A program made the position numbers and the translations under genes. Below the pieces are notes generated by a model. The model was not told the origin of the DNA. It made no database searches and worked only from the letters and a program-made list of their open reading frames with translations. A stretch of DNA of 64,000 bases from an uncultured Actinomycetota bacterium (GTDB lineage Bacteria > Actinomycetota > Actinomycetes > Streptosporangiales > Streptosporangiaceae): positions 1,201,823 to 1,265,822 of the forward strand of contig CAWAPP010000007.1 in NCBI GenBank assembly GCA_963783935.1. Direction: 5' to 3'. Numbering within the stretch: the first letter of the stretch is position 1; each line of letters starts with the position of its first letter. Below are positions 1-32,937 of this stretch, piece by piece.

Positions 1-1056
1 GGGCGGGCTCTCTCCGCCTTTGTTTCCTGGCCATTACTGACCGGGCTGGCCGGAGGGCCGTGGCGGTGGCAGGTCGCCGGGCCAGGCGGGCTCTATGCCG
101 CGGCGATCCCGCCTGGCTGGCTGATCTGGACGGCAGTTCTCCTGGTCGCGACGACTGTGCTGCTCAGCGGGTGGGCCAGGCCGGGCGCCCGGCGGGCATG
201 GCTGATCTTCGCAGGCTGGATTGTGCTGGCTGACGCGGCGCCAGGACTTGACGTGAGGGATCTTAGCGATGTGGCGCCTGTCCTGGCGGTCTGCCTGGGC
301 TTGGCGTTCTTTCCGCTGGCGGGTCAGGTAGCGGGAGCCAATGCGCGGCGAGGCCGTGTTGTCCGGTCGGTCGGCCTGGTGTCCGTCGCGATCTTCATCG
401 CCGGGTCGATCTGGTCCGATCAGGTGTACCAGGACCTGACCGGCGGGAATCCCGTGGTCGCAAGCTACCTGAGCAACGCCGGTCACGCGGTGGCGCAGGC
501 GGCGCGCGGCACCGACGTCCTTGACTCGCCGGTGCCCGCCCCGCTCGTGTCGCCCCGCTTCGGTCTTGACCGCTATCAGTCGGCTGTGATCGGCAGCATG
601 AAAACCGGTCGGTTGCACTGGATCGACCAGTTGCGGGGCACGATCATCAAGCTGATGATGTTCGGGCCTGACGGCAAGCTCTACCCGGTGTTCATCGACG
701 GCGTCCAATCGCCCAGGCGCGCTGAGCCCGGCCTGTCCGCCTGCTGGCCGAACGTCGGCGGCCGGGTCACGGTACGGTTCCCGCGCGTGACGACGGCTGG
801 TGACCGAACGCTTCAGGTCAACTACATCTGGAACTCAGCGCCTGCGACGGTTCGGGTTAGGTACGGAGCCTCGGCCAGCCGGATCCGCCTGATGCCTGGC
901 CTGCACAACGCTTACCTGCCGGTGCTCGGCCGGGTCAGGAGTTTCACGATCTACGCAGACGCGCACCACCTCTGCGTAGGAGGCGCGGAAGCCGGGCGCC
1001 CCCGTGCCGCTCTAGAGAACCGAGCGGCTGGCTCTTGGGTTCGCCGCCCGAGTTAG
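1..1056 (+). CDS. integral membrane protein, C-terminal part (start lies upstream of window)
   Basis: Frame 1 is open from base 1 and runs into listed ORF 157..1056. TM-like stretches (LIWTAVLLVATTVLL, VLAVCLGLAFFPL, LVSVAIFIAGSIW) precede a soluble C-terminal domain. High-GC third-position bias. No family recognised. Confidence 0.55.
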   Translation, partial: GRALSAFVSWPLLTGLAGGPWRWQVAGPGGLYAAAIPPGWLIWTAVLLVATTVLLSGWARPGARRAWLIFAGWIVLADAAPGLDVRDLSDVAPVLAVCLGLAFFPLAGQVAGANARRGRVVRSVGLVSVAIFIAGSIWSDQVYQDLTGGNPVVASYLSNAGHAVAQAARGTDVLDSPVPAPLVSPRFGLDRYQSAVIGSMKTGRLHWIDQLRGTIIKLMMFGPDGKLYPVFIDGVQSPRRAEPGLSACWPNVGGRVTVRFPRVTTAGDRTLQVNYIWNSAPATVRVRYGASASRIRLMPGLHNAYLPVLGRVRSFTIYADAHHLCVGGAEAGRPRAALENRAAGSWVRRPS

Positions 1057-2330
1057 GTCGACCTAGTGCGCCACCCGGAGTGCGGGTGGACCGCGAAGTG
1101 CTCGCGCAGTCAGGGCGCCGGCCGGTTCACGTTCGGGCGGCGGTTCCGGGCTTGCGGCAATTACCCGAAATGCCGGGGCTGGGGGAGTAAGGGCAGTGGG
1201 GGCCAGGGCGGGGGCTTGACCCGATCGCGTCGCGTGAACCCAGTGCCGGCTATCGCGGCATTCCGGTATTCTCGGCATTCCGGTATTCTCGGCATTCCGG
1301 GTATTTGCCGCAACTGGCCGGACCGGGCCGCAACGATGTCCCGGCGTTGCTGCTCCCGGCCGGGCGGCAACGACAACGATGGCCCCGCGTTGCTGTTGCA
1401 GCAGCATCGATGGGACATCGATGCGGTAACCGCAGGCCAGGCAGCGACAACGATGGGCCACGGGTGCCTTTCTTTGGGAGTGAGGCCGGTCTCGGAGGGT
1501 CTCGCGCGGGAGGCGGGGGCACCCTGCTGTTGTTTTGCGAACGTAAAGTGCCCCCGCTTCCGGGGACCGCGCGGCGGGCTGGGGCGGCGGGGCGGCCCTG
1601 CCTTGGCGGCGAGCCCCGGCGTAGTTCCTGCGCCGTGGTCCTGGCCCCAGCTCCGGGACGACGGCGGGCCTGCGGCCGCCGCCCGGCCCGCGCTGACGGT
1701 CCGGTATGCGTTATATGCGGGTTTCGCGGGGTGAGGGGCGAGCGGGCCGGGCGGGCCGGCAGCGGCCGACGAAAACACAGACCACCCGTCACTTGAAAAG
1801 AAAGGCACCCATGGGCCACGGGTGCGTTTCCGCTGGAGTGAGGCGGGTGCCGGATGGTCTTGCCCGAGCCCCCCGGTGTCAGCGGCCGGGGCGGCGAGCT
1901 GCCCTGGATGCCGGGAATGCCGGGAATGCCGGTGGAGGCTGCGGCGGGAAGGGCTGGAGGACCGGTTCCGTCCGGGCCGTGCCGAGGAGTCGACCAGAAC
2001 TCACTCCCACGGAAACACACCCATGGCCCACCGATGCGCTTCTCTTGACGGGAGATCTGGCCGGGTCCTGGACCTGACCTGACCTGATCGGCGCCGTGTC
2101 CCGGGCCTCTGTTCCGGCCCGGCTGCCACCGGGTATTTCGGGCATTTGCCGCAATTAACCGCGCCGGAGCTGCTGCCCCGCCGGTGAACCGGCCGGCGCC
2201 CTGATAGCGGGGGCACTTTACGTTCGTAAAAACGATAGCGAAGTGCCCCCGCATCGGCAGTGGGACCCGCGGACATGCCTTCCCGGTCGGTGGCCAGTTC
2301 GGGTCCAGTTCCGCGGGCTGCTCGTCGCTG
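1057..2330. repeat. composite intergenic repeat cluster R1
   Basis: Four spaced copies of the GCATCGATGGGCCATCGATGC-type palindrome (about 1326-1470). Long hairpin GTCACTT..GGCACCCATGGGCCACGGGTGCG..GGAGTGAGG (1788-1843). Hairpin GCGGGGGCACTT-N22-AAGTGCCCCCGC (2207-2252) with an inverted half copy at 1531-1556. 17-bp tandem GGCATTCCGGTATTCTC x2.5 (1257-1307). 1110-1175 is an inverted degenerate copy of 2120-2205. Listed ORFs here overlap on both strands and translate to Arg/Pro/Gly-rich text with recurring MGHRC, so none is called. Confidence 0.8.
1813..2029 (-). mobile_element. MITE-like element, 217-bp copy, bounded by ~30-bp terminal inverted repeats
   Basis: Ends GGGCCACGGGTGCGTTTCCGCTGGAGTGAGG (1813-1842) and CTCACTCCCACGGAAACACACCCATGGCCC (2000-2029) are inverted repeats. 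The interior aligns by eye, in reverse orientation, with 17345-17613. Confidence 0.5.
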
Positions 2331-2701
2331 ACTGTGACTGGTTGTCTGTCCTGCGGAGGCTATGCTGCCGCGCCGCTTCCGGTGCTCGGGCCCGTGCTGC
2401 AAACACTGCGCGGCCCTGCGCTCCGGGTCGGCTTGCCCTCGGATTACCTCGGGGTTCTGCAGGCGCCGGCTGAGATCGCCGGCTGGGCTGGTCCCGGAAC
2501 TTGCGGCCGCTGGTCGTTCCGTTCGTCACTGCGGGTGATCACGGCGGTGCAAAGAGCGCGGCAGTTCGGTGCCGCCTCCTGGGCTAGTGAACACTTTCCG
2601 CAGGTCATCGCGACGTCGAGAGTTCATGCGTGGCCGAAGTCAGGTTTCACGTATCTGTCATTCGGCTTCTCTGGCGCCGTCCACTGCCTGGCCGTTTCTG
2701 A

Positions 2702-4060
2702 CTACAACCAGAACCTATCCGCAGGCTGCGCTATCTGATTGTCGTACTGGTGCCTGATTAGAAGTGGCGAGACCTTGTACCTGCTGGCAACTGCCTCTAT
2801 GGCGGAGTCGTCAGTCTTGCCGAGAATAGTCAGGTACTGTCTTATACCTTCGGCTGGTGCAAGAAGCTCCGCCGCGAACGCCCCGGCGACCTTCTCGTCA
2901 TTTCCCCGTGCTAGCGAAAGGATAAAGTGGCTCTGGTTCGGGCGGAGCAGGATGCGTCCGAGCGCTCTGGCCTGCGCGAACTTGTTTACCGAAATTCCCG
3001 TCCTCGGCAGGCCAAGTATCAGGCCGCACCGGCCGCTTTGCACGGCCGTAACGCCCTGTAGGCCGCGCGCTGGTGCATTCGACTCGCCTAGACCAACCCA
3101 CGGTGATGTATCGAACGGATCCATGGTGCTGACGTTCAGTTCCCGTCGAACGCTCGTGGCCATGGAATAGCCAGCAATCCAAGGTCTCTCCATGCGATTC
3201 GCGCCCAGGGTGTGACTGATGATATCGCCGTCAGTCGATACGGCATCATAGAGCGGCCGCAGGTTCTCGCGTGCCCTGACGGAGGCTTTCTCAGCCGAAA
3301 TCATCGCCCGTCGAGCCCATCGGGCGGCAGCCGTCAGGGCCTCGGGATCGGCGCTGTCAAAGAAGTCTGACACCAACTCCTGCGGAAGTTCCGCGGCTAT
3401 GTCTATGATATCGGCTGCAATGCCATCTGGAAGAGAATATGGATCTAGCCCAAGTTTACCTGCCGTCAGGCAGAAGTCTCTTTCATCTGGACTGGCATCG
3501 GCTATTGCTTCCCATTCGTCCGCGAGTCTGGTCTTGTGGAGGCCTTCCTCTGAAAGTCGTTCCAGTACCCGGTCAACGATCGATGCCAGGCCTTCAAGCA
3601 CATCGCTTGTGGCTCCTGCTGTCACTCCGTCGGCGGCGAAGCGGATTGGCCTGGGTGCGTACTTCAGATCTGACACCCAGCAGATCCGCGTTACCGCGCC
3701 TTCCGTCACAAGAGTCAGGTTGGGCCACGCCATGCCGTCGCCAGCGCCACGGAAATTATGGTTCGCCAACCACGGATAGGTGCGAATGTTCGGCCAGGTC
3801 CAGTAACGGCTTTCGACGGCCGAGGGCCGGATATGCGCGGTCAGAATCCACCAGTTGGTCGCGATCCACTCCGCCAACGGGTACACGGAGCCATAAATGG
3901 ATCTGCGCAACGTCCCATCGGGCGTCTCGGCTTGCGTCACGCACCTTCCGCCAACCCAGAGTTCCTGCCTGGCCCAGGTTGCCGCGAGTTCAGGAGTTGT
4001 GACTCCCGGCGCATCTAGCCATTCGATTCGAAAGTCAAAGGCGTCAGTCATGGCAACCAA
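2702..4060 (-). CDS. hypothetical protein with C-terminal ImmA/IrrE (peptidase M78)-like domain lacking the HExxH zinc site
   Basis: 452-aa ORF with non-junk composition. The C-terminal ~90 aa follow the M78/COG2856 pattern (KFAQARALGRILL .. DEKVAGAFAAELLAP .. VASRYKVSPLLIRHQ), but the expected HELGH is RALGR (codons at 2954-2968). The N-terminal ~330 aa are unrecognised. The region looks lower in G+C than its surroundings. Confidence 0.75.
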   Translation of the reverse strand: MVAMTDAFDFRIEWLDAPGVTTPELAATWARQELWVGGRCVTQAETPDGTLRRSIYGSVYPLAEWIATNWWILTAHIRPSAVESRYWTWPNIRTYPWLANHNFRGAGDGMAWPNLTLVTEGAVTRICWVSDLKYAPRPIRFAADGVTAGATSDVLEGLASIVDRVLERLSEEGLHKTRLADEWEAIADASPDERDFCLTAGKLGLDPYSLPDGIAADIIDIAAELPQELVSDFFDSADPEALTAAARWARRAMISAEKASVRARENLRPLYDAVSTDGDIISHTLGANRMERPWIAGYSMATSVRRELNVSTMDPFDTSPWVGLGESNAPARGLQGVTAVQSGRCGLILGLPRTGISVNKFAQARALGRILLRPNQSHFILSLARGNDEKVAGAFAAELLAPAEGIRQYLTILGKTDDSAIEAVASRYKVSPLLIRHQYDNQIAQPADRFWL

Positions 4061-4431
4061 CTCGGCGCTTCATCGTCCTGAATTGGATATCCTTTGTACT
4101 GTCCAAGGCCTGAGTTGCTCAGCCTGGCCTCGTAGACCTGCCCATCAACGCGCTTCCATGCGTAACGCGGAAAGTCGCCTTCGAGTTGCGCACTGACGTC
4201 ACCGTCACGCACAGCATCCCGAAGCCACTTGACTACATTATCGAGGTCCAGGCCTCTGGGACAGGCCGAAGCGTCACTGCGAAGCCGTCCGGGACCAGCA
4301 CTGGTCAGGTAATCCTTGTGCTCAGTGCTAATGACGTATGCCACCTTCTCGGACACAGTCGTCAAGTCGACATCGCACCCCAGCGCAAATCGATCCAGCT
4401 TGCGCGGCCGGTGACGATTAGGCGTGCGCAT
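4048..4431 (-). CDS. hypothetical 127-aa protein, co-transcribed with and overlapping the downstream M78-like gene
   Basis: ORF overlaps the downstream gene by 13 nt (4048-4060), implying translational coupling. Non-repetitive composition; C-terminal motif WKRVDGQVYEARLSNSGLGQYKGYPI. No family recognised. Confidence 0.6.
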   Translation of the reverse strand: MRTPNRHRPRKLDRFALGCDVDLTTVSEKVAYVISTEHKDYLTSAGPGRLRSDASACPRGLDLDNVVKWLRDAVRDGDVSAQLEGDFPRYAWKRVDGQVYEARLSNSGLGQYKGYPIQDDEAPSWLP

Positions 4432-4544
4432 CTCCAGCTCCCTCGGCGGCTCGGGTGTCCAGGCTCGGGCTTGTAGTCAGCGGTCTTCGAAGCCGTAGGT
4501 CTCGAACTTCAGCGTACGGGCATTCTCCGTGACGTTCGACTCTA

Positions 4545-4860
4545 TCCAGTGCACCGCCACCACCGCTCCCTGGCGTCACGGGTGCGTTTCATTTGGTGTG
4601 ACCAATGGCAGGCGGTTCGGCGGGCCACTGTCGGCCGGGCCGAGAAGCCCGCTCTGTCCACCCGGCCTCCCCGAACCGGGCATAAACCGCATACCAGTCC
4701 CGCGCCGGATCCGACGCCCCGCCCGCAGGCCCATCAATGTCCCGGCGCGGGCGCCAGGACCCCTTCGCCGGAACAACGCTGGGCCTCGCCACCCGCCCTC
4801 GCCACCCGCCCTCGCCACCCGCCTCGCCACTCGCCCTCGCCACCTGCCTGGCCGGCCGCG
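4545..4860. repeat. intergenic repeat cluster R2
   Basis: Half copy of the CACGGGTGCGTTTC..GGTGTGAC hairpin arm (4577-4602). 13-bp tandem CTCGCCACCCGCC x~5 (4784-4848). The overlapping ORFs are Arg/Pro-rich junk. Confidence 0.7.
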
Positions 4861-4951
4861 CCGGTGATTCGGGCGGGGCTGGTGCGAGAGAAAGCTATTA
4901 CTGATCTGAACTATCAGTCTTCTAAGGAATGACAATCTAACTACCAGGGTA

Positions 4952-4980
4952 TTGACGGCGACCAAACGCATTTCTACGCT
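4952..4980 (+). promoter_or_regulatory. candidate housekeeping-sigma promoter TTGACG-N17-TACGCT
   Basis: -35 TTGACG at 4952-4957, a 17-nt spacer, then -10 TACGCT (TAnnnT) at 4975-4980. It lies in an AT-richer stretch 36 nt upstream of the ATG at 5016 and ahead of a long + strand operon. Confidence 0.4.
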
Positions 4981-5015
4981 AACGGCAACCTGCGATTTAC
5001 CGGAAAGGCTCATTC

Positions 5016-5165
5016 ATGAACGAAAAGGTCATTATCAGAACAGACACCTCAGTGGCCCCAGTCCTGCTCACCCCGGCTCTGGTCGAGAAGATGCTCGCCA
5101 GCCGCGACGCCGTACAGGTCATGAAGTTCCGTACCACCTGCACGGACTGCGTGCCTAATTACTAA
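5016..5165 (+). CDS. small 49-aa ORF (MNEKVIIRTDTSVAPVLLTPALVEKMLASRDAVQVMKFRTTCTDCVPNY), possible precursor or accessory peptide
   Basis: ATG at 5016 is preceded by GGAAAGG 7 nt upstream; stop TAA at 5163-5165. Too short for the ORF track. Lower G+C than the flanks. First cistron after the candidate promoter and just upstream of the nucleotidyltransferase gene. Confidence 0.4.
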   Translation: MNEKVIIRTDTSVAPVLLTPALVEKMLASRDAVQVMKFRTTCTDCVPNY

Positions 5166-5254
5166 GCCGTGAAGCGACGCCGTGGTGACCGGCCGGCCGA
5201 GGTGCCGGCTCGCCTCGGCGCCGCTTCGGTGTCTGCTGCCGATCGCCAGGGAGG

Positions 5255-6436
5255 GTGATGGAGCTCAGCGGTGCGAACCTGGTCGAGGCGCTCGGCACGG
5301 CGTGCGGTGAGCAGGCCGAGGAACCCGCGGAGATCGTCGGGCTCGTGCGCCGGGCCGAGCCGGGGTTCGCGGCGACGCTGTTTTCTGCCTGGCAGGCTGA
5401 GGGCATCGCGCTCAACGCGGCCTTACGCGAGGACGTGGAGTCCGCGGCCAGCCGGGTCGGGTTTTATCGCTCGGTCGCGGCTGAGCTCACCAAACAGGTG
5501 GACAGCCTGACCACGATCAAGGGGCTCGAGGTCGCTGCTCTCTACCCGGCCGGCCTCGTCAGGTACATGAATGACCTGGATTTCATCACGCCGTCAGAAG
5601 ACGACCTGTGGCGGGCGGTCGGCTGGCTGACTGACGAAGGCTGGGAAACCGACACGGCGACGTTCTCGTTCCTTGAGGGCTCGCTCCGGGTCATGGTCAG
5701 CCTGCGCAAGCAGAACGAGGACAGATTCCGGCTGCCGTACGGCATCGAGCTGGCGACCTACTACACGCTCGGAGACCAGGGCGGCATACCGCCGATCATC
5801 GAGCTGCCGGCCAGATGGCAGGTCCCGGCGGTCAAGAACTCGATCATGCTGCTTCACGAGCGCTATGAACAACCCTTCCGCGCGCGTGACCTGGTGGACG
5901 CGGCTTTGCTGCACGAGTCGATGGGCGAGCCCGAGCGCCGCGCCCTGCGTGAGGCGGTGGCCGAGCTCAATCTCGCGGTCGAATACGCCGAACTGGTCCG
6001 GCTGGTCAATCAGGCCGGGCTCGCCGACCTGGCGCCGCTGCCAGGTGGCCGGTGGGTGACCGCGCGGACGAGGGCGGTCCGGCTGACCCGCGGAGCTGGC
6101 TTCTTCGCCAAGCCGGTGACCGGGACTGGCCGGCATCTGCAGCGCCGGCTGATGATGGCCAAGCCCGGCCGGGCCGAGAAGGCGGCGTGGGAGCTCGTGC
6201 AGCGGCGGCTGCACCCGGCCACGGCGATCCGGGGCGGGCTGCTTGGCTTCGGCCTGCCGCTCGGCGGCCCCCGTTCGGAGGTGGCCAGTGCTGTTCTCCG
6301 CCGTCGGGGCGACCTGGCCTGGGTCGACACCCCGGCTGGCCGGTTCCTGCTGACCGTTGGCGATTTCGTTTCCGAGGAAGCCGTCACGGAACTTAGCGAG
6401 GGGCAAGAACCTGAGCCGGTCGCGGAGGCCAGCTAA
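5255..6436 (+). CDS. nucleotidyltransferase-fold protein (NTP_transf_5 / uncharacterised nucleotidyltransferase family-like)
   Basis: Motif TTIKGLEVAALYPAGLVRYMNDLDFITPSEDDLWRAVGWLTDEGW matches the KG..la.lY...R...DlDllv...d...a...L...G signature of this family. SD AGGGAGGG precedes GTG 5255 / ATG 5258. Confidence 0.7.
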   Translation: MMELSGANLVEALGTACGEQAEEPAEIVGLVRRAEPGFAATLFSAWQAEGIALNAALREDVESAASRVGFYRSVAAELTKQVDSLTTIKGLEVAALYPAGLVRYMNDLDFITPSEDDLWRAVGWLTDEGWETDTATFSFLEGSLRVMVSLRKQNEDRFRLPYGIELATYYTLGDQGGIPPIIELPARWQVPAVKNSIMLLHERYEQPFRARDLVDAALLHESMGEPERRALREAVAELNLAVEYAELVRLVNQAGLADLAPLPGGRWVTARTRAVRLTRGAGFFAKPVTGTGRHLQRRLMMAKPGRAEKAAWELVQRRLHPATAIRGGLLGFGLPLGGPRSEVASAVLRRRGDLAWVDTPAGRFLLTVGDFVSEEAVTELSEGQEPEPVAEAS

Positions 6437-7704
6437 TGACGGAGATTACGGCCACGGCCGGGCGCGCCGCAACGGACGCCCTGGCCAACGGCGTGCGGTA
6501 CGCGGTGCTGCACCGGCCAGGTGCCCAGGTAACCACCGTCTCGGTCTGGGTGCTGGCCAGTTCCCGGCACGAGCCCGTTCCCGGAGTCGCTCACCTGCTT
6601 GAGCATGTCGTCATGCAGGCAGTGCCGGCCGGGCACAGCCAGCGGGTCGTCGATGAGATCGAGGCGTGGGGCGGCGACGTCAACGCGATGACGACCCGCG
6701 ACCATGTCGTGCTGCACGCGAAGGTACCCACCTCGGAAGCGGGTGCGGCCTTAGCGGTGCTCGCGGCCGCGGCGGCCACGGCGGAATTCGACGATGAACT
6801 GGTTGAGGCGGAACGGCGAGTCGTGCAGGAAGAACTAAGGCTTGCCGCCGCCGATCCCACCGACATCGTGCATGACGTGTTCTTCCAGGCCGCCTACGGC
6901 GATGACCAGATGGGCTGGCCGGTCGGCGGCACGGCCCCAGGCGTCGCCCGTCTCGGAACCGCTCACCTGCGCGAGTGGTCTCGCCGGTTCGTGCGGCCAG
7001 CGACAACAGCCGTGGTCGTGTGCGGCGGCCTGAGCAGGGAAGAGGTGGCCTGCCTGCTGGAGGACGGTCCGCTCGCCGGCCTGGTTCGGGACCCGCGAGG
7101 GCGGCCGCCAGACAGTTCGCCGCCGGTAACGGCCGGGCGCCGGGACCTGCCGATCGTCAGCGACACGGCTGCTGTGGTCATCGGCGGACAGGGCTTCGCC
7201 CTGAGCGACCGCGCGATCCTCGCGGCTGAGATCGTGCTCGAGCTGATAGCCGGCGGCAACGCGTCGGTGCTGAACGAGGAGATCAGGTCGAACCTGGGGC
7301 TGTCCTACGACATCTTCGGCGGGGTGAGCGGGTACCGGGAGACCGGCACCTGGCGGGTCGCGATCTCCACCGCCCCGGAAAACCGCGACGAGGTCGTCGG
7401 CCTCGCCACCGGGCTGATAGCCGATGCGGTCAGGCGGGGCTGGACGCCTGAGCAGGTCGGCGCGGCGCGGCGCCGGGTCGCCGGGCTGGCGCAGGTCAAT
7501 GCCGAGTCCTCGCTTGAGGAGGCGTTTCAGTTCGGCGATTACGCCTATGTGGGCGATTGCGCGGGCTTCTCGTTCCCCGGCTATCTCGGTCAGCTGGCCT
7601 CCGTCGAACCCGACGAGGTGGCCGCGGCCGCCGAGTTCATGACTAACCGCCTGGTGGTGGCGACGGCCGGACCGGACGGGTCGCAGGACTTCCCAGTCGA
7701 GTGA
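6436..7704 (+). CDS. M16 (pitrilysin/insulinase) family zinc peptidase
   Basis: Inverted zinc motif HxxEH in GVAHLLEHVVMQ. 422 aa, M16 N- plus C-domain size. The start overlaps the upstream stop (TAATG at 6434-6438). Confidence 0.85.
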   Translation: MTEITATAGRAATDALANGVRYAVLHRPGAQVTTVSVWVLASSRHEPVPGVAHLLEHVVMQAVPAGHSQRVVDEIEAWGGDVNAMTTRDHVVLHAKVPTSEAGAALAVLAAAAATAEFDDELVEAERRVVQEELRLAAADPTDIVHDVFFQAAYGDDQMGWPVGGTAPGVARLGTAHLREWSRRFVRPATTAVVVCGGLSREEVACLLEDGPLAGLVRDPRGRPPDSSPPVTAGRRDLPIVSDTAAVVIGGQGFALSDRAILAAEIVLELIAGGNASVLNEEIRSNLGLSYDIFGGVSGYRETGTWRVAISTAPENRDEVVGLATGLIADAVRRGWTPEQVGAARRRVAGLAQVNAESSLEEAFQFGDYAYVGDCAGFSFPGYLGQLASVEPDEVAAAAEFMTNRLVVATAGPDGSQDFPVE

Positions 7705-7727
7705 CAACCATGGAGAGGAGGTGCCAA

Positions 7728-7784
7728 TTGGACCGTCACATCAGATCCGCTCGCCGGCCGAAGATCAAGCCGATCAAGAAGTGA
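7728..7784 (+). CDS. micro-ORF 1: (M)DRHIRSARRPKIKPIKK, 18 aa
   Basis: TTG start 6 nt after GGAGAGGAGG (7712-7721); stop TGA. An in-frame ATG at 7710 would give a 24-aa form (MERRCQL...) but has no SD. Shares the RRPx[IV]KP[IV]KK core with micro-ORFs 2 and 3. Confidence 0.55.
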   Translation: MDRHIRSARRPKIKPIKK

Positions 7785-7795
7785 AGGAGTGACCA

Positions 7796-7852
7796 GTGAA
7801 CCGTCGTCTGTACGCCGCTCGCCGGCCCACCGTCAAGCCGGTCAAGAAGTAG
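7796..7852 (+). CDS. micro-ORF 2: MNRRLYAARRPTVKPVKK, 18 aa
   Basis: GTG start 6 nt after AAGGAG (7784-7789); stop TAG. Paralogous to micro-ORF 1, with synonymous codon differences in conserved residues. Confidence 0.55.
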   Translation: MNRRLYAARRPTVKPVKK

Positions 7853-7889
7853 CCGGCTGGTTCTCACGCCAACGAAGGAGGGAGGGGAC

Positions 7890-7940
7890 ATGGACCGTCG
7901 TCGAGCCTCATTGCGCCGTCCTGTCGTGAAGAAGAAGTAG
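7890..7940 (+). CDS. micro-ORF 3: MDRRRASLRRPVVKKK, 16 aa
   Basis: ATG start just after GAAGGAGGGAGGGG (7874-7887); stop TAG. Same M[DN]RR...RRPx[IV]K..KK pattern. Confidence 0.55.
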   Translation: MDRRRASLRRPVVKKK

Positions 7941-7965
7941 TGAGCCTTCCCTCACCACGTGAAGT

Positions 7966-8917
7966 GTGAGCAAGCCGGGGTGCGGCGCGCTGGACGGCGG
8001 CGCATCGTGCCCCGGCCGCGCCACCGGAAAGGCTTGGTCGTTGGAAAGTGTCGATCCTGATCGCACGATCTTCGCGCTGATCTGTCCCGATGCGCTGGCG
8101 AGGCATCTTGGCCGGGTAATCCTCGCGCGCGTCGGCGAGGCCGGCTTCGCGCCGGTGGCCTGGCGGGTGATCTGGCACCGCCCTGAGGATCTCGACTTCT
8201 TCCATGAGCGCAACATCAGCAGTGCCTGGCAGTCATATTTGTACCGCCTAGTCGACCAGTTGTTCGCCTTCGGCCCGGCGGTGGCCCTCCTGCTGGCCGA
8301 CCAGCGCCCGGGCATGGAAGGTCACAGCCGGCTGCGGCTAGCGAAAGGCCCAAGCGACCCCGCCCGCTCGGGACCGGGAACGATCAGGGGCGACCTCGGC
8401 TCGGTCAACGGCATGCTTTCGCTGCTCCATACCGCCGACTCCGCCGCCGACTCGGCCAGGGAAAGCGCCGTTTTCACTGGCCCGGACGGTTTTACTTCCG
8501 GCGACCAGGACGACCTGCTCAACGTGCTTGAACTGCTCGAGCTTCAGCCGGCCTCGCGAAATCCGCGACTACCCGGACGTGGTAGCCGGCCTGCGAGCCA
8601 AAGCTCTCGCGGCCGCCTGGCCAGACTTGCCAAGACCGGTCCGCAAGACCGCGAGCGAGCTTCTCAGGTCAGGAACGGCGGAACTGGCCGCGCCCGCGAG
8701 CGGCGAGCGGCTCGCCTGCCTGCTTGATCAGGACCATCCGCTCACCGGGATGCTCAGGGCCAGCTTCACCCCGGCGTCCGCCGGACCCGATCCGCAGCGG
8801 GTCGCCGTGACCCTGGCGGGATTCGGCACCGGCATCGACGAGTGGGAGCGCCTGGTGCTCGCCACGTCCCGCCGCTTCTGGCCGCGCCGGGTCATCCCTA
8901 CTAAAGGACCAGCTTGA
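7966..8917 (+). pseudogene. NDK-fold protein with C-terminal extension, paralogue of 16249..17190; apparent +1 frameshift near 8540-8565
   Basis: N-terminal part (ORF 7966..8727) shows an NDK-like pattern (DRTIFALICPDAL.., GTIRGDLGSVNGMLSLLHTADSAADSA with a retained His) and then turns into Arg-rich junk. ORF 8528..8917 in the next frame continues with text alignable to the C-terminal domain of the paralogue (GIDEWERLVLATS vs DWLPLWDRIVTAAH). Joined length ~317 aa versus 313 aa. The true start may be internal (TTG 8041 or GTG 8050). Confidence 0.6.
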
Positions 8918-8954
8918 ATCTGCCAATTTTCCCCAGCAGTCGAGGAGAGCCGCC

Positions 8955-10169
8955 GTGGCGTCAGTATTCTTCCGCACCAAGCTAGGCACCACCGAGGAAC
9001 TCGCGGCCGCACCTGGCCAGCCGCTGACGGACGTGCTCCTTCGCGCGGGCATTCCGGTGAACACGGTCCTGACCTGGCGTAACGGCACCATAGTGGCCGA
9101 GGAAACTACCGTCGTGCAAGCCGGCGACGTGATCGAGGTCCGCCAGGTCAGGCATTACGACCTGGACGTGCTCCGCCGGCCGAGGCGGCAGGTGTACGGC
9201 GTGCCTGACCCCGTATACGCCAAGACGGTGCTCTTCGACACGATGGGCTCGCTTGAGCGCAAGACCGAGCAGCTTGACGCGGCCGGTTTCGTGAAATACG
9301 TCGAGGAGACGTTCGTCCAGAGCGTGCTCTCTCATGACGTCATGCGGGCGGGGGACAAGGTAGTCGTCGGCCTGTCCGGCGGCCGGGACAGCGTCGCGTA
9401 CCTGACTTTGCTCGAGCGCACCAGGGAACGGCTGCCCGACCTCAACATGACGGCCGTCACTATTACGGGGCTGCCCGACTGGGAAGAGCCGGCCACGTTC
9501 GCCGCCGCCAGGGAATCCGGCGAGCGCCTCGGCATCGAGCAGGTGATCGTTACCTCGGCCGACGTCGAGCGGACGTTCAAGCTCAAAGGCCAGTTCGTAG
9601 ACGCCATGAACGAGGTCGTGGCCGGCGAGGGCAATCACCTGACCATGGTGATCGGCCATCAGGTGCTGCGCCGGATGCTCGAAGAGGAAGCCAGATCACG
9701 AGGGGCCGGGGTCGTGGCGTTCGGCTTCAACGCCGATGACCTGGTGGCTTCCATGGTGACGTGGTTCACGAGCGGCTTCCGCATGGGCGGCATCCCGGTG
9801 CGGGAGATCGGGGACCTTCGGTACGTGTTCCCGCTGTACCGGATCACCAAGAAGGAACTGACGCTGTACCTGGAGCTGGTCGCGCCCGAGCTGAACCGGC
9901 AGGGAACACCAGGCCGGTTCACGACCGGGCCCGATGAGCGATCGATGGCTTACGCCCTCACCGATCACCTCTTTGACTTGTGGCCGGGCATCGATTACTA
10001 CTTGTTCGCGGCGTTCGCCAACATGCAGCGTTACATGTTCCCGCTCATCGAGGTGTCCTGCCGGGGCTGCGGCGGTCTTTACCTGCTGCAAGAGGGCATT
10101 CCTAACGCGCCCGATCTGTGTGACGTGTGCGATTTCTTCGCCCGGCGCGAGCTGAGCACTATCAGCTGA
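8955..10169 (+). CDS. PP-loop (N-type) ATP pyrophosphatase, TilS/TtcA/TtuA-like, with N-terminal beta-grasp-like region and C-terminal CxxC..CxxC zinc ribbon
   Basis: SGGxDS PP-loop in VVVGLSGGRDSVAYL. Central GHQ/..NADDL.. block typical of the family. N-terminus resembles ThiS/MoaD (NGTIVAEETTVVQAGDVIEV). C-terminus CRGCGG...CDVCDFF. No Cys in the catalytic core. Confidence 0.85.
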   Translation: MASVFFRTKLGTTEELAAAPGQPLTDVLLRAGIPVNTVLTWRNGTIVAEETTVVQAGDVIEVRQVRHYDLDVLRRPRRQVYGVPDPVYAKTVLFDTMGSLERKTEQLDAAGFVKYVEETFVQSVLSHDVMRAGDKVVVGLSGGRDSVAYLTLLERTRERLPDLNMTAVTITGLPDWEEPATFAAARESGERLGIEQVIVTSADVERTFKLKGQFVDAMNEVVAGEGNHLTMVIGHQVLRRMLEEEARSRGAGVVAFGFNADDLVASMVTWFTSGFRMGGIPVREIGDLRYVFPLYRITKKELTLYLELVAPELNRQGTPGRFTTGPDERSMAYALTDHLFDLWPGIDYYLFAAFANMQRYMFPLIEVSCRGCGGLYLLQEGIPNAPDLCDVCDFFARRELSTIS

Positions 10170-11944
10170 TGCCCTGGTACGAGGACTATTTCACCGCCGA
10201 CTACTGGTCGTACGCGGACGCCGAGTACACGGCGGCGCGGACCCAGGCTGAGGTCGGGTACCTGGCCGAGGTGCTGAGGCAGCATGCGCCAGGTCGCCGG
10301 GTGCTTGACCTTGGCTGCGGCACCGGCAGGCACGCCGTCGGGCTCGCCCGGCTCGGGTTCGAGGTAACCGGTGTCGACGTGTCTGAGTACGCGCTCGGGC
10401 GAGCGCGCCTGGCAGCGGCCGAGGCGGGCGTAACGGTCCGCCTGCACCGGGCCGACGTGCTGGGGAACTGGACCTGCCCGCCTGCCGACGCGGTGGTTTG
10501 CGTGCAGGCCTTCGGCTGGGGGCAGGACGCCGACCAGCTCAGGCTGCTGCGCCGGATCAGGCGGCTGCTGGCCCCCGGCGGTCTGCTCGTGCTCGATCAT
10601 TCCAGCCTTCTCGCCATCACCAGGATGTACTCCGCGCACGCGGAGGCCAGCGTCGGCGCTTCGACGTTCACGTTCAGCCGGACCTTCGATCCGGTCAGCG
10701 GCCGGAGTGGTGGCGAGGTCCTGGTCGAGCGCCCGGACGGCAGCAGCGGCGTGCTGCCTGACAACGTGCGGCTTTACACCCCAGCCGAGATCGCCGGGCT
10801 GCTCGCGCGGGCGGGATTCGAGGTGATCAGGGCCGACGCGGACTTCGGCGCCGGTGAGCCGGTCACGCTGAGCACCAGGTACGTGCAGTTCCTGGCCACC
10901 CCGGCCGCCAGGGTGGAGCCTGCCCTCGCCGGGCATCGAGAGCCGGCCGGACCACGAGAAATCGACTTGCGCTGGGCGCCTGACGAAGCTGAGTTCACCC
11001 GCGCGGAAGTGGCGGCTGCCTGGGCGCGGACGAGCCTCGATCAGGCCAGGCGCTACGACCTGCGTGATCCGTACGGCGGCGGGCGGGCCGCACCGGTTCT
11101 TGGCCGGCACCTGGGCTGGCCGGCTGGCACGGCTCCCAGCCAGGACCGGGTCAGTGCCGGCGCGGGCGTCACTGGACTGCTGCACGGGCTGGCCAGGCTC
11201 GCCGACGGCGGCACCCTGCTGATGACGCCGGACGGGCATCCGCAGCTAGCCGAAGCGGCTTCCGCGGCCGGCGGCCGGGTCGCGGTCGCTGAGCTCGCCG
11301 ACCTGGCTAAGGCCGTCGTCGCTTCCCGGCCAGCGGTTACCGTACTCGACCGGCCAGGACTCACCGGCCCTTGCTGGCCGGCCAGCGGGATCGCCGACCT
11401 GGCGGCCCGCGGCGCCGAGCACGGCGGCGTGCTCGTCGTCGATGAGAGCTACGGCTGCTACCGGCCGGCCGACGACAGCGTGGCTCGGCTCACCGACAGC
11501 GTGGCCGGCCTCGTCGTGCTTCGCGGAGTGTCCAAAGGTTACTGCTGCGGCGGGCTGCGGATCGGGTTCGCTGTCGCCTCGGCGGAGGTCGCGGCCGAGG
11601 TGAGGGCGGTGCTGGCGCCGCTCGCCTTCGGCGCTCTCGCCTTCGACCTAGCCCTCGCGTTGCTTGACCGGCCCGATCCGTTCGGGCCGCTGCGGGCACG
11701 GGTGGCCGAGGTCAAGCCCGTGCTCGAGGCGGCGGTGCGCCGGGCAGGCGTCGAGGTGATCGGGAGCGACGAGCACGTGCCGTGGATCGTGCTGCCCGAC
11801 GACCCGGCGCCGCGGTCGGCGCTCGCCAAGTGGGGGCTCGTCGCGAAGCGCGTTCCGCTCGTCGGTCGGTCTGGCTGCCTGCTCCGGATGTCGGTCCCGT
11901 TGTCGCGAGAACGGGCGGACGCGGTGAGCGCGGCGCTGCGATGA
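10169..11944 (+). CDS. fusion protein: class I SAM-dependent methyltransferase domain + PLP-dependent class I/II aminotransferase-fold domain
   Basis: N-terminal motif I RVLDLGCGTGRHAVGLARLGFEVTGVDVS. C-terminal PLP-lysine block LRGVSKGYCCGGLRIGF, as in the HisC/CobD-like family. ATG at 10169 overlaps the upstream stop (TGATG). Confidence 0.85.
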   Translation: MPWYEDYFTADYWSYADAEYTAARTQAEVGYLAEVLRQHAPGRRVLDLGCGTGRHAVGLARLGFEVTGVDVSEYALGRARLAAAEAGVTVRLHRADVLGNWTCPPADAVVCVQAFGWGQDADQLRLLRRIRRLLAPGGLLVLDHSSLLAITRMYSAHAEASVGASTFTFSRTFDPVSGRSGGEVLVERPDGSSGVLPDNVRLYTPAEIAGLLARAGFEVIRADADFGAGEPVTLSTRYVQFLATPAARVEPALAGHREPAGPREIDLRWAPDEAEFTRAEVAAAWARTSLDQARRYDLRDPYGGGRAAPVLGRHLGWPAGTAPSQDRVSAGAGVTGLLHGLARLADGGTLLMTPDGHPQLAEAASAAGGRVAVAELADLAKAVVASRPAVTVLDRPGLTGPCWPASGIADLAARGAEHGGVLVVDESYGCYRPADDSVARLTDSVAGLVVLRGVSKGYCCGGLRIGFAVASAEVAAEVRAVLAPLAFGALAFDLALALLDRPDPFGPLRARVAEVKPVLEAAVRRAGVEVIGSDEHVPWIVLPDDPAPRSALAKWGLVAKRVPLVGRSGCLLRMSVPLSRERADAVSAALR

Positions 11945-13839
11945 TGCGGCTGGCGGAGGTCGTGGCGGCCGTGCACGACGAATTCGATCTGGGCCTGGCC
12001 CTGGCTGACCTGCGCGCGGTCTGCGAGTACGACCGCTACCAGGCGTCGGCCGGGATTACCGCCGCCGCCGAGTACGTGGCCGAGCGGGCGAGGTGCGCCG
12101 GGCTGGCCGACGTCAAGGTGCTGACGTTCCCGGCCGACGGCGGGCGGCGGTGGTGGACCTATCGCGCGCCGGTGTCCTGGACGCCGCTGCGAGCCAGGCT
12201 CGCGGTCGGCGGCGACGTTCTGGTCAGCTACCCCGAGCAGCCGTACACGCTGGCGGCCTATTCGGCGCCGGTCGGGCCGGGCGGACGGTCGTTGCCGCTG
12301 GTCCGCTGGACCGCCGTGCGACAAGGCGCCGACTCGCGCGGCTCCCTGGTCGTCGCCGACGAACCGGTCGCGCTTGGCTCGGTCGCTCACTCGCTGGCGG
12401 GAGCTGGCGCCGTGGCCGTGGCCGCCGATCCCCTCGGCCGGTCACCACAGCGGGGGGCCGGCCAGGTTGGCCGGATCGAGTTGCCCGCCGGGTGCGGGCT
12501 GGCGGCCTTCAGCGTGACCGCCGGGGTGCTGGCCCGGCTCGCGGCCGAGGCTGACCGGGGTGGCGCGGCTCAGGTTGAGGTCGTGCTCGATGCCAGCGTC
12601 GCGGCGATGCCGGTTGTGACCGGGCGGCTGCGTGGTGACGCCGAAAAGGAAATCCTGCTCAGCGCTCATCTGTGTCATCCAAGACCCAGTGCCAACGACA
12701 ACGCGTCTGGTGTCGCCGCGCTGCTCGGGATCGCACGGGTGCTGGCCAGAGCGCCCGCCGGTCGCGCCCGCCCGGCCATCAGGTTCCTGTGGGGACCGGA
12801 GTTCACCGGCATCGCCGCCTACCTGCATGAGCAGGTCGGCACCGGCAAAGCTTCCGCGCCTTCGTTCGCGATCAATGTGGACATGGCCGGCCAGGATGTG
12901 GCCAGGTGCGGTGGCCCGCTGGTCATCGAGCGCGGGCCCGATGACATCCCCTCGTTCCTGCCCGCCCTCGCCTCCCGCTGTGCCGAACTGCTGCCGCCCG
13001 CCTCCCGCTCCTACAGCGGTGCGGTCGGGTGCGACCCGTGGACCTGGCGCGAGACGCCGTTCGCGGGCGGCGCCGATCACGCCCTGCTGGCCGACTCGCC
13101 GGCCAGGTGCCAGGTCGTCGGGCTCGGCCACTGGCCGGACCGCGCCAATCACAGCTCAGCCGACACCCCGAACCTGGTTGATCCGCAGGAGCTCCGGCGG
13201 ACAGCGACCATCGCTGGTGCGGCAGCGGCCGCGATCAGCGCCAGCGCTGGCGGCAATTTGGCGGATGATCTTGAGGAAGTAACCGTGAGCTGGGCGGCGA
13301 GGCACGTGCTGGCGACGTTGCCCGGCAGCCGGCCTTGGTCAGGTCGAAGACCTCAGCAGCTGCTCGATCCGCACGACGAGGCGGAAGCGGGACGGTGGCT
13401 CAGGCATCGGGCCGCGGTCGCGCTGGGCGCGATCAGGGCGCTGCCGGCCGCCGGGGTCGATGACGCCAGGGTGCGCGCCGCCCAGGCCTGGATCGGGCCA
13501 GTCATCACCGCTACCGCGGAACGGCTGCCGCCTGCGGCCGGGGCTGCTGCCGGCGCCGAGCCGCTGATCAGGTGCTGGGCCGGTCCGGCGAACTTGCGCG
13601 CGCTCGCCGAGGACGCCGCGCCCTTGGACAGGGACTGGCTAAATGAGGCCCTCGCCGTCGACCGGGGCGGCAACTACGCCCGCGCGCTGGCGCTGATGCG
13701 CGGCGTCAATGGCGAGCGCGATCAGGCCGAGGTCGCCTGGTGGGCGGCGCTGAGCAGTGAGCTTGCCATTCCGGTGGCGTTCGCGGAGACGTTCGTTGCC
13801 TTGCTTGTCCGGGCCGGATGGGTGCGAGGAGATCAGTAA
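11941..13839 (+). CDS. M28-like aminopeptidase-fold protein (DUF4910-type) with C-terminal winged-helix-like tail
   Basis: Signature LSAHLCHPRPSANDNASGVAALLGIARVL. Start chosen at ATG 11941 (MMRLAEV..), overlapping the upstream stop as ATGA. The upstream part of listed ORF 11782.. overlaps the previous gene. Confidence 0.8.
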   Translation: MMRLAEVVAAVHDEFDLGLALADLRAVCEYDRYQASAGITAAAEYVAERARCAGLADVKVLTFPADGGRRWWTYRAPVSWTPLRARLAVGGDVLVSYPEQPYTLAAYSAPVGPGGRSLPLVRWTAVRQGADSRGSLVVADEPVALGSVAHSLAGAGAVAVAADPLGRSPQRGAGQVGRIELPAGCGLAAFSVTAGVLARLAAEADRGGAAQVEVVLDASVAAMPVVTGRLRGDAEKEILLSAHLCHPRPSANDNASGVAALLGIARVLARAPAGRARPAIRFLWGPEFTGIAAYLHEQVGTGKASAPSFAINVDMAGQDVARCGGPLVIERGPDDIPSFLPALASRCAELLPPASRSYSGAVGCDPWTWRETPFAGGADHALLADSPARCQVVGLGHWPDRANHSSADTPNLVDPQELRRTATIAGAAAAAISASAGGNLADDLEEVTVSWAARHVLATLPGSRPWSGRRPQQLLDPHDEAEAGRWLRHRAAVALGAIRALPAAGVDDARVRAAQAWIGPVITATAERLPPAAGAAAGAEPLIRCWAGPANLRALAEDAAPLDRDWLNEALAVDRGGNYARALALMRGVNGERDQAEVAWWAALSSELAIPVAFAETFVALLVRAGWVRGDQ

Positions 13840-15104
13840 TGAAGATGATCGTGCTTGCCGATCGCAACCTGCGAGTGCTGTTCGCCGGGCAGACGATGAA
13901 CATGATCGGCAACACCGCCATGACCATTGTTCTTGGCATCTGGGTGAAGGACCTGACCGGATCGAGTGGTGACGCCGGCCTGATCTTCTTGCTCCTGGCG
14001 GCGGCGGCGTTTCTGGCGCCGGTGACCGGCCTCATTGTCGATCGCTTCCCGCGCCGCAGCCTGCTGGTGGTCAACGACTCCATTACTGGCCTGGCCGTCG
14101 GGTTGCTCCTGCTAGTGCACCATAGGGATCAGGTGTGGCTGATCTACGTGGTGGCGGCCGTGTACGGCGTTTCCGGGCTGATCTACCGGTCCGCTCGGGG
14201 CGGGCTGCTGCACTCGATGGTGCCCGACCAGCAGCTTGGTGAGGTCAACGGCCTGTTCAGCAGCCTGTCCCAGGGGATGAGGATCGTCGGGCCGCTCGCC
14301 GGCGCCGGGATCTACGCGGCCTGGGGCGGCGGCGTGGTAGCCGTCGCTGACATGGCTACTTTCGCGGTTTCGATCGCGTCCTACCTGGCTCTTCGTCAGT
14401 TCCGTGACCTGAAGCGAGCCGACCAGGAGCGGCTTGGCCGCACGCCGCGCGAGTTCGCGGCCGAGCTGACGGCCGGGGTGCGGCATTTGTTCGGTAACGA
14501 CGTGATCCGGCGGATGGTCATCGCCAGCACGATCGGCTTCGCCGGGGCCGGCATGATCGACGTGGCCATGTTCTCGCTGGTCGATCAGGGTCTTGGGCGC
14601 CCTACCTCCTGGATCGGGGTGCTGGCGAGCGTTCAGGGCGCTGGCAGCGTGCTGGCGGGCTTTATCGTCGGCCCCTACATGCGCCGCTTCGGTGAGTACA
14701 GCGCGGCCTGCGTGGGGTTTCTGCTGAACGGCGTCGGCCTGGCGGCGGCGAGCACGTCGGTGCTGCCCGGTGCGCTGTGCGGCTCGGCGCTGATCGGGAT
14801 CGGGCTGCCCATGGTCTTGGTCGCCGAGTTGACTGTGCTCCAGCGCCGTACTCCGGCCGACTTGCAGGGGCGGGCGATCGCGGCCTCGGAGGCGATTATC
14901 AATACCCCGTTCTCGATCGCGATCGCGGTCGGCGCGGGTGTGATCGCGACCGTCGGGTTCCGGCCGATCTACATCGGGGTGGCCGCCGGCTTCACCGTCG
15001 TCGGCCTGGCCCTGCTGCCCTACCTGAAGGTCACTAAGCCGGAGGACGCCAAGCCGGCCGACGTAGCGGACGAAGTCGCGGTGGTCGGGCAGGCGCCTGA
15101 ATGA
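13839..15104 (+). CDS. MFS transporter (EntS/efflux-like)
   Basis: About 12 hydrophobic segments. N-terminus MKMIVLADRNLRVLFAGQTMNMIGNTAM is typical of the MFS_3/EntS type. Start overlaps the upstream stop (TAATG at 13837-13841). Confidence 0.85.
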   Translation: MKMIVLADRNLRVLFAGQTMNMIGNTAMTIVLGIWVKDLTGSSGDAGLIFLLLAAAAFLAPVTGLIVDRFPRRSLLVVNDSITGLAVGLLLLVHHRDQVWLIYVVAAVYGVSGLIYRSARGGLLHSMVPDQQLGEVNGLFSSLSQGMRIVGPLAGAGIYAAWGGGVVAVADMATFAVSIASYLALRQFRDLKRADQERLGRTPREFAAELTAGVRHLFGNDVIRRMVIASTIGFAGAGMIDVAMFSLVDQGLGRPTSWIGVLASVQGAGSVLAGFIVGPYMRRFGEYSAACVGFLLNGVGLAAASTSVLPGALCGSALIGIGLPMVLVAELTVLQRRTPADLQGRAIAASEAIINTPFSIAIAVGAGVIATVGFRPIYIGVAAGFTVVGLALLPYLKVTKPEDAKPADVADEVAVVGQAPE

Positions 15105-32031: not shown

Positions 32032-32510
32032 CAGAGCGCGCGCTGCCGATCGCGGACCGCGCCGCGGCTGAGCACGATCACTTCACGTTACCCGCAATGG
32101 GAGGCCTCACGTGCTGGTGGTTCCCGCATGGTTGTTTCTGAGTGATGGCGGCGGCGGCGGTCCTGGCCCGGGCGGTCAGCCCCAGCCTTGTTCCCGCGAT
32201 GGGGTCCAGGCCCCGGCTCCGGGACGACGGTGGGGTGCGACCGGGAACCCGCTGGTCCGGGATGTACTATATGCGCGGTTCGCGACGCCGGGAGCCGCGG
32301 TTAGCCTGGCTGGCCGGCAACGCGGGCCGCTGCTCACTGGCGAAGAAACGCACCCATGAGCCATGGGTGCCTTTCTTCTGGAGTGACGGTGATCGGCGGG
32401 CATGGAGCGCAGGCTGGCCCCCCTGCGCGTCGACCGGTATGCCGCTAATGCCCGGTTCGCGGAGGTTAGCCCGTGAGGTTTTCGTCCAGGGCGGGCCGGG
32501 CCGGGAGTGC

Positions 32511-32672: not shown

Positions 32673-32937
32673 TGACTCAAACCGCCCATATCGCCCGGCC
32701 GCCAGCCTGGCCGACCGCGACTCCACGGACAGACTGTCGCTCGTCACTCCCCGGGAAACGCACCCATGGCCCATCGATGTCGTTTGCGCGATCTGGGGTT
32801 ACCGCATCGATGGCCCATGGTTGCGGTAGGAGCAGCATCGATGGCCCATGGTTGTTGTTGCCTGGCGGCCGCGAACCGCATCGGTGGGCCATCGTTGCTG
32901 CCCCGCCCGGACAGTTGCGGCAAATGCCCCGGATGCA

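Follow-up and report, generated by a model that had tools for sequence, protein, structure and literature searches.

A portable gene pair combining a conserved small protein with an ImmA/IrrE-type domain that has lost its HExxH motif: a candidate toxin–antitoxin module of the RosmerTA kind

Introduction

Proteins with an ImmA/IrrE-type (M78) domain are a hub class of antitoxins and regulators in toxin–antitoxin (TA) and anti-phage systems, and they are generally assumed to cleave their partners. In NetFlax, the ImmA domain (D25) is a hub antitoxin found with many unrelated toxins; the toxin gene comes first in 58%, and the antitoxin often carries a small N-terminal helix-turn-helix (HTH) domain (PMC10440598). 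Experimentally, the ImmA-domain protein is the antitoxin in RosmerTA systems (PMC10440598). In these defensive systems the antitoxin is a Zn-peptidase and the function of the toxin is unknown; no rmrA deletion could be made (bioRxiv 10.1101/2022.05.11.491447). For the predicted type II Xre-COG2856 systems the roles were assigned the other way round, with the COG2856 protein as toxin and the small upstream gene as regulator or antitoxin (Makarova et al. 2009, PMC2701414). Here we analyze a gene pair from an uncultured Actinomycetota bacterium of the Streptosporangiaceae (assembly GCA_963783935.1, contig CAWAPP010000007.1, positions 1,201,823–1,265,822; this stretch of 64,000 nucleotides is called the window below). 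On its minus strand, a gene for a 127-aa protein precedes a gene for a 449-aa protein that ends in an ImmA/IrrE-type domain in which the HExxH zinc site reads RALGR.

Proteins of this large family carry no annotation beyond 'hypothetical' or the misleading 'ImmA/IrrE family metallo-endopeptidase'. Literature searches on M78 pseudoproteases, COG2856 TA systems and the Protein Data Bank (PDB) entry 5FFP, to which we return below, yielded nothing on this family.

Results

Both open reading frames (ORFs) of the pair in the window are intact and hold all residues that are invariant in the family (Table 1). A first-pass annotation, made from the sequence alone, had described two minus-strand ORFs of 452 and 127 aa overlapping by 13 nt. 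The ORFs exist as described, and it is the overlap that has to be revised. The database copy and an independent gene call in a second assembly both place the start of the large gene at the ATG at 4051, which yields 449 aa, and homologues of the large protein begin at the same ATG position (MSxxFD...). With this ATG as the real start, the genes most likely overlap by 4 nt, and an overlap of 13 nt requires the upstream TTG. The 4-nt ATGA junction implies translational coupling of the two genes, as far as can be judged from the sequence.

The window protein itself is matched weakly by the Pfam Peptidase_M78 model (PF06114; 13.6 bits, E=0.061, aa 388–437), and a search of NCBIfam with it gave nothing. 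Two homologues that are 59% identical to it, P0020 and P0059, reach 26.3–26.5 bits over profile positions 34–120, above the Pfam gathering score of 22 bits. Moreover, hhalign aligned the family profile with an HExxH-bearing relative from Pseudomonas soli LMG 27941 (locus L044) at a probability of 97.5% (E=5.8e-12, columns 94–438). From the homologues that pass the gathering score and from this alignment it follows that the C-terminal domain, as first proposed, is securely an M78 homologue. The same alignment sets the family sequence ARALGR exactly opposite AHEICH of the P. soli protein. The earlier placement of the degenerate zinc site at RALGR is hence correct, and a misalignment against an active M78 family, which had been considered as a way in which it might fail, was not found.

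The substitution is a property of the whole family. In the 45 loci and 150 database representatives compared, the HExxH position reads R-[AGS]-x-x-x (RALWH, RALGR, RALGL etc.), and among close homologues R362, A363, L364, G365 and R366 are each at least 90% conserved. A His comes first at this position in two proteins only, namely in P. soli (HEICH) and in the partner-linked locus L047 (HAIFV, which is not an HExxH motif). The stretch ARAFAAELLAP is invariant in all loci; the Glu of FAAELLAP is presumably the residue with which active enzymes such as IrrE provide a third ligand to the metal. As both zinc-binding His residues and the catalytic Glu are lost, proteolysis by the M78 domain is predicted to be implausible.

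Ratios of nonsynonymous to synonymous substitution rates (dN/dS), computed against the two closest copies, were 0.05–0.10 for the pseudo-M78 domain, 0.11–0.14 for the whole large gene and 0.06–0.10 for the small gene. Because the HExxH loss is family-wide and accompanied by strong purifying selection, it does not reflect decay of the window copy. On this sequence evidence it is an ancient trait under strong constraint, and a dead site in this sense differs from a degenerate one. The lost catalytic motif and the atypical G+C content might also be expected of decaying, non-functional remnants of a once-active ImmA-type system. We consider such decay hardly credible: it is contradicted by the selection analysis (dN/dS 0.05–0.14), both ORFs are intact with every family-invariant residue kept, and the substitution pattern is common to relatives in many phyla.

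The two genes are nearly always found together. Searching 1.84 billion cluster representatives with the large-protein profile retrieved 2750 clusters (50% identity) at E≤0.001, for some of which the M78 domain may be the only matching part; 767 clusters passed E≤1e-30. Of the 150 matches listed, most are full-length proteins of 420–450 aa. A scan of species-representative genomes gave 44 loci with a relative of the large gene (L005–L048). In 39 of these, covering at least six phyla, the small gene lies directly upstream of the large gene or overlaps it. Within the Actinomycetota the paired loci come from Streptosporangiaceae, Frankia, Actinoplanes, Catellatospora, Pseudonocardiaceae, Marmoricola and Friedmanniella, and outside this phylum from Dormiibacterota, Chloroflexota, Acidobacteriota, Myxococcota, Planctomycetota and Acetobacteraceae (Alphaproteobacteria). 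Cultured soil Actinomycetota with the family include Actinoplanes, Frankia, Catellatospora, Kribbella, Nonomuraea and Planotetraspora. The five loci in which the small gene went undetected are one with a truncated small gene (L006), one that starts at the large gene (L027), one degraded locus (L024) and two with a C-terminal fragment of the large gene only (L042, L043). In four further loci, L044–L046 and L048, the relative of the large gene is more distant or partial, and L044 and L046 have a divergent small partner upstream. The pairing is thus near-obligatory.

Some copies are damaged. At L006 (9896–11350), a small gene with a truncated 5' end stands beside an intact large gene; at L018 (10001–11354), a frameshift disrupts the large gene but not the small one. 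Frankia sp. CIT1 (L029, 9506–11343) has frameshifts in both genes, and L024 (9890–11308) has its large gene split into three and no small gene left. Some of these copies may be assembly errors in long-read metagenome-assembled genomes.

For the small protein we collected 221–332 homologues, nearly all of about 127 aa, all labeled 'hypothetical' and none with a Pfam domain. EHKDYLT.AGP..LR.DA..CPR and FPRY.W...YEARLSN.G.G.YKGYPI..E.P.WL are common in close homologues, and the motifs can be summarized as Y-x-G/I-S-x-E-H-K and FPRYxW...YEARLxN...G-x-Y-K/H-G-Y-P. Only H38, C57, P88 and Y112 are invariant across phyla including the P. soli cousin. Readings of the motifs as an ADP-ribosyltransferase R-S-E site or as an RNase T1/barnase site were dropped since the residues in question are not conserved across phyla. 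Searches of Pfam, NCBIfam and PDB sequences with the small protein gave no match, and Pfam searches with 15 diverse members returned chance matches only; these Pfam searches also revealed no HTH, ribbon-helix-helix (RHH) or other DNA-binding signature. Likewise, the N-terminal ~330 aa of the large protein matched nothing in Pfam, NCBIfam or PDB sequences. The initial impression that neither the 127-aa protein nor this N-terminal region has relatives that can be named thus holds in these databases. In PADLOC, a match of the small protein to NsnC (E=0.027) was discarded as chance, being seen in one of 14 family members.

AlphaFold 2 (AF2) modeled the small protein with a predicted local distance difference test (pLDDT) score of 69; the C-terminal half shows a single helix and then a three-stranded sheet. 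Foldseek returned for this model a weak list made up mostly of RelE/ParE/HigB toxins together with a chain from a contact-dependent growth inhibition (CDI) complex, 7m5f_C (E≥0.6, template modeling (TM) score ≤0.39), that is, nothing significant. For the large protein (pLDDT 68), the model consists of an alpha/beta N-domain and a helical C-domain joined by a long helical middle region, with pLDDT mostly 63–83 in the N-domain and poor values at aa 316–384. The N-domain (aa 1–150) is the best-conserved part of the protein, and aa 151–330 are the least conserved (mean identity 0.37, dN/dS 0.16–0.19). The top PDB match of the whole medium-confidence model was CdiI, the immunity protein of Burkholderia dolosa AUO158 (5ffp_A; E=0.019, probability 1.00, TM 0.55 normalized to the target, root-mean-square deviation (rmsd) 6.2 Å, 12% identity). 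With the aligned residues unreported, the match would most plausibly belong to the N-domain. We take the CdiI likeness as a hint at the level of the predicted model; there is no sequence similarity to CdiI, sequence-profile searches of the PDB with both proteins found nothing, and we found no publication on 5FFP. Against viral structures (BFVD), a Foldseek search with the large model had no match below E=0.3. The small protein's pairwise identities follow those of the large N-domain (rho 0.92) more closely than the domains of the large protein follow one another (0.79–0.86). This would fit a physical contact of the small protein with the N-domain, for which it is a mild hint.

In the window, the pair differs from its surroundings in base composition. 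G+C is 0.57–0.62 over 2600–4400 and 0.67–0.73 in the flanks; the pair has a G+C of 0.59 and a G+C at third codon positions (GC3) of 0.61–0.65, and every neighboring gene has a GC3 of 0.80–0.93. DNA homology with the closest copies (L005, L007 and L018; 74–78% identity) is confined to 2702–4536; this segment begins with the large-gene stop codon, ends some 105 nt upstream of the small-gene ATG and defines a cassette of 1.8 kb. No gene flanking the pair in the window had a counterpart at the other loci compared, and in 34 of 39 loci the G+C of the pair falls below that of its flanks, typically by ~0.08. The pair is a self-contained, portable cassette that was acquired horizontally. The lower G+C and the view of the islet as acquired cargo, both advanced in the first-pass annotation, are thereby borne out; a fixed core-genome context with normal G+C, which would have spoken for the opposite, was not seen.

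The cassette includes a conserved 5' region (4432–4536), in which a putative promoter (TCGAAC, 17 nt, TACGCT) and an imperfect inverted repeat (CGTCACGG..CCGTACG) can be discerned and might be read as promoter and operator; scans for sigma-70 consensus and terminators gave no promoter and terminators at chance level only. As judged from the sequence, the small gene has a GGGAG ribosome-binding site in front of it, and an Rfam scan of window positions 1–6000 found nothing.

Table 1. Coordinates of the gene pair and its parts within the window
Feature	Position	Strand	Basis
Small gene, 127 aa, putative toxin	4048..4431	(-)	ORF listing
Large gene, ORF of 452 aa from TTG start	2702..4060	(-)	ORF listing
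Large gene, 449-aa product, ATG at 4051	2702-4051	(-)	Independent gene call
ATGA stop/start overlap of small and large genes	4048..4051	(-)	Junction ...TGG TTG CCA TGA CTG...
N-terminal Trp-rich alpha/beta domain, aa 1-150, putative toxin-binding/immunity-like	3602..4051	(-)	Conservation, AF2
Helical middle region, aa 151-330	3062..3601	(-)	AF2 secondary structure
C-terminal pseudo-M78 (ImmA/IrrE-type) domain, aa 331-449 and stop codon	2702..3061	(-)	PF06114, hhalign
RALGR, degenerate HExxH position	2954..2968	(-)	Translation, alignment to HEICH
FAAELLAP, invariant M78 motif	2855..2878	(-)	Translation
Conserved 5' region of the cassette	4432..4536	(-)	DNA homology with L007 and L018; alignment block

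Copies of the pair recur near defense genes. The clearest case is a soil metagenome contig (Ga0634824_0000529; L055, 1–17314), where the pair sits inside a compact defense island that adjoins a TrwC relaxase. The pair is flanked on one side by a helicase and an MZB/DUF1998 protein, on the other by a Septu-like AAA_15/21 ATPase with HNH protein, a 1347-aa methyltransferase of the Eco57I/MmeI type and a DISARM-like SNF2 helicase. The large protein at this locus is the widely sampled variant P0046, which is indexed in 58 blocks of contigs. Further copies stand beside a type IIG restriction–modification (RM) enzyme with transposases, beside a DruA-domain protein with a HigB/HTH pair, or beside type I RM fragments. 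A Kribbella plasmid contig carries the pair with a PycTM protein about 10 kb away. On the conjugative plasmid pAt2 of Agrobacterium tumefaciens (NZ_CP048577.1; L065, 3838–11030), a divergent pair of 24% identity with RAIGD at the HExxH position follows right after repABC, between two 'restriction endonuclease' genes and a site-specific integrase.

When the 189 ORFs lying up to 3.5 kb from the pair at 38 non-redundant loci were scanned with PADLOC, several gave very strong matches, namely to DrmMI/type IIG (4), type I methyltransferase (2), phospholipase D-helicase (2), DrmD (2) and the cyclase of a cyclic-oligonucleotide-based anti-phage signaling system (CBASS; 1), in addition to PDC-M02B, PDC-M36A, mad2/3/8 and PbeA. 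The survey of homologous pairs suggested at the outset thus revealed RM, DISARM, Septu-like and CBASS genes as recurrent neighbors, with metabolic genes around the pair at other loci. This is a recurrent association in a sizeable minority of loci, not a statistical enrichment.

Around the cassette in the window, palindromic intergenic repeats resembling repetitive extragenic palindromes (REP) or miniature inverted-repeat transposable elements (MITE) occur at 1056–2600, 4440–4950, 17269–17357 and 32356–32774. The motif ATGGGCCACGGGTGC is matched 6 times, with 0.3 expected, there are many inverted and direct repeat units, and a 13-nt tandem repeat (GCCTCGCCACCCG) is present in about 5 copies at 4783–4848. 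The repeat clusters described earlier on either side of the islet are real, and their reading as mobile-element ends had to be rejected. The motifs recur at 17.3 kb and 32.4–32.8 kb and hence are genome-wide repeats rather than islet ends; moreover, homology among the copies stops inside the repeats.

On the plus strand beyond the cassette, a row of genes extends from 5016 to 15104. A 49-aa ORF (MNEKVIIRTDTSVAPVLLTPALVEKMLASRDAVQVMKFRTTCTDCVPNY, 5016–5162) stands directly upstream of genes for NTP_transf_5 (5255–6436), an M16 peptidase (6436–7704), an NDK-like protein (7966–8727), a protein with a weak PP-loop ATPase match (8955–10169), a methyltransferase–aminotransferase fusion (10127–11944), an M28 peptidase/DUF4910 (11782–13839) and a major facilitator superfamily (MFS) transporter (13818–15104). 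By gene content this row looks like a precursor peptide of the ribosomally synthesized and post-translationally modified type with its tailoring and export genes.

Discussion

The closest described kind of system is RosmerTA, and judged by its sequences the family appears as an ImmA-domain TA or defense module rather than as a categorically new system, albeit as a large and unnamed one. Like RosmerTA, it is a two-gene operon of a variable putative toxin of unknown fold and a partner with an ImmA/M78 domain; both are mobile and found in defense islands, and the toxin-first order that the family would have is common among ImmA-domain systems (PMC10440598; bioRxiv 10.1101/2022.05.11.491447). The differences are marked. 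The family has HExxH replaced throughout, Pfam and NCBIfam detect no HTH in the large protein, which instead has a novel region of ~330 aa and the M78 domain at its extreme C-terminus, and the small protein matches none of the RmrT models in PADLOC. Relatives of the large protein are nevertheless similar to RmrA. P0020 and P0059 match RmrA models weakly (1.6e-4 to 7e-4), and the P. soli protein matches 12 of them, with a best E value of 1.2e-9. The family therefore probably works like a Rosmer-type module and is derived from one.

The P. soli locus (NZ_FOEQ01000001.1) is of particular help in this comparison. Its 139-aa gene (8880–9299) lies upstream of a 499-aa gene (9296–10795) and overlaps it, and the small protein carries a YHGYP motif (...ISYHGYPYKG), keeps the C...P...YHGYP pattern and aligns with the family's small protein in hhalign at E=1.3e-4. 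Unlike the window family, its large protein has an intact HEICH and scores 37.7 bits with PF06114. It looks like a catalytically competent cousin of the family, as far as sequence comparison allows.

We favor, with moderate confidence, a TA module of the RosmerTA kind, in which a putative small toxin would be neutralized through binding by the large pseudo-peptidase as antitoxin. We infer these roles from the CdiI match of the large protein, the RelE/ParE/HigB and CDI fold matches of the small protein, the covariation with the N-domain and the L006 copy; neutralization by binding and a role in phage defense are likewise proposed. The near-obligatory pairing, the coupled genes, the occurrence on plasmids and in defense islands and the relatives close to RmrA models sustain, at the level of a candidate, the TA or defense pair that had been suggested from the sequence.

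In such a module, the 127-aa protein would be a growth-arresting effector, with the invariant His38, Cys57 and Tyr112 as candidate active residues and possibly a RelE/BECR-like (BECR, barnase–EndoU–colicin–RelE) helix-plus-sheet fold in its C-terminal half. The co-translated 449-aa protein might neutralize it stoichiometrically, mainly via an immunity-like N-terminal domain, and the M78 domain might have been retained as a non-catalytic surface for binding or sensing. The toxin could then be freed, and growth arrested, when for example a phage infects the cell, the cassette is lost or the antitoxin is turned over, possibly as abortive infection.

Several observations weigh against this reading. 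No PDB structure matched the small model with an E value below 0.3 in Foldseek, and hhalign of the small protein with a HigB-like toxin was negative (probability 0.1%). The CdiI match is weak fold evidence as well, in view of its E value, its large rmsd and the pLDDT of 68–69 of the models. In PADLOC, the large protein of the window itself matched no RmrA model at E≤1 and only capP (1.6e-4). No copy was found by tblastn in phage genomes, and many loci lie amid ordinary metabolic genes. As searches of both proteins revealed no DNA-binding domain, autoregulation in the style of type II systems would be unexplained. Finally, the L018 copy, with its small gene intact and its large gene frameshifted, argues against a lethal small toxin if it is not a sequencing error.

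The L018 pattern would also fit reversed roles, with the large protein as effector or sensor with a toxic N-terminal or middle region, and the small basic protein as antitoxin or as a regulator in place of Xre. The assignment proposed for classical Xre-COG2856 systems (PMC2701414), the conserved Arg/Lys-rich N-terminus of the small protein and the imperfect inverted repeat in the conserved upstream region point in this direction. However, searches with the small protein found neither an HTH or RHH nor any further signature of DNA binding, and the sole recognizable catalytic site of the large protein is lost. In RosmerTA the ImmA-domain protein is experimentally the antitoxin (PMC10440598), the fold match of the large protein is an immunity protein, and at L006 it is the large gene that is intact and the small gene that is truncated. 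We thus regard reversed roles as unlikely. With the Xre-COG2856 systems the pair shares a COG2856-type domain and the format of a mobile two-gene module; it differs in the kind of partner, in the absence of the catalytic residues and in that the domain makes up the C-terminal quarter only. Generic type II TA systems resemble the pair in being compact bicistronic operons that are mobile between genomes and replicons.

The pair might also be a non-toxic accessory module, that is, a stress or signaling pair or a regulator of a mobile element as in ImmR/ImmA or DdrO/IrrE, in which the pseudo-peptidase would sequester its partner. The characterized M78 proteins ImmA, IrrE and CapP do regulate via a partner protein (PMC10440598; PMC12828697), and the metabolic neighborhoods of many loci would suit such a role. 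ImmA/ImmR of ICEBs1, IrrE/DdrO of Deinococcus and CapP/CapH of CBASS moreover have in common with the pair a homologous M78 domain, the Glu of FAxELLxP and an adjacent partner. In the window pair, by contrast, the zinc site is lost, the partner is not an Xre/HTH protein and there is no particular regulated element; no HTH gene is adjacent to it in the window. Without an Xre partner and without a catalytic site, the pair is not of the ImmA/ImmR, IrrE/DdrO or CapP/CapH type. The cassette moves by itself, no genes that it could regulate accompany it consistently and its small partner shows no DNA-binding domain; its context differs even between copies that are 74–78% identical in DNA, and copies recur in defense islands and on plasmids. 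A non-toxic accessory function does not seem likely to us in view of these features.

The fold hints to the CdiI immunity protein and to the CDI complex chain 7m5f_C could be taken more literally, with the pair as an interbacterial polymorphic toxin–immunity cassette in which the small protein is a detached toxin domain and the large one its immunity protein. Unlike CdiI systems, the pair has no CDI context, and none of the loci inspected has a secretion gene, a delivery domain, a signal peptide or a large toxin gene upstream. The small gene further comes with a start codon and a ribosome-binding site of its own, and we know of no immunity protein with a fused pseudo-peptidase domain. An interbacterial cassette is hence quite improbable, and the putative TA module with a binding antitoxin remains our preferred reading.

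We may tentatively go one step further and envisage, as possible rather than probable, a new cross-phylum family of abortive-infection or TA systems that uses an ImmA-type domain as non-catalytic sensor or clamp together with a toxin of new fold and a His-Cys-Tyr center. A large conserved branch of M78 proteins has no catalytic site and has retained both the domain and a fixed small partner, which suggests a binding-only mode. The N-terminal domain and the small protein have no Pfam or NCBIfam model so far, and the family is frequent in soil Actinomycetota, a group with poorly charted defense systems. The pair provides a well-defined two-gene target for experiments, and the P. soli locus is a natural comparison on whether catalysis matters in this architecture. 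If this further reading were true, ImmA-domain antitoxins could work without proteolysis, and a new defense system would be common in soil Actinomycetota.

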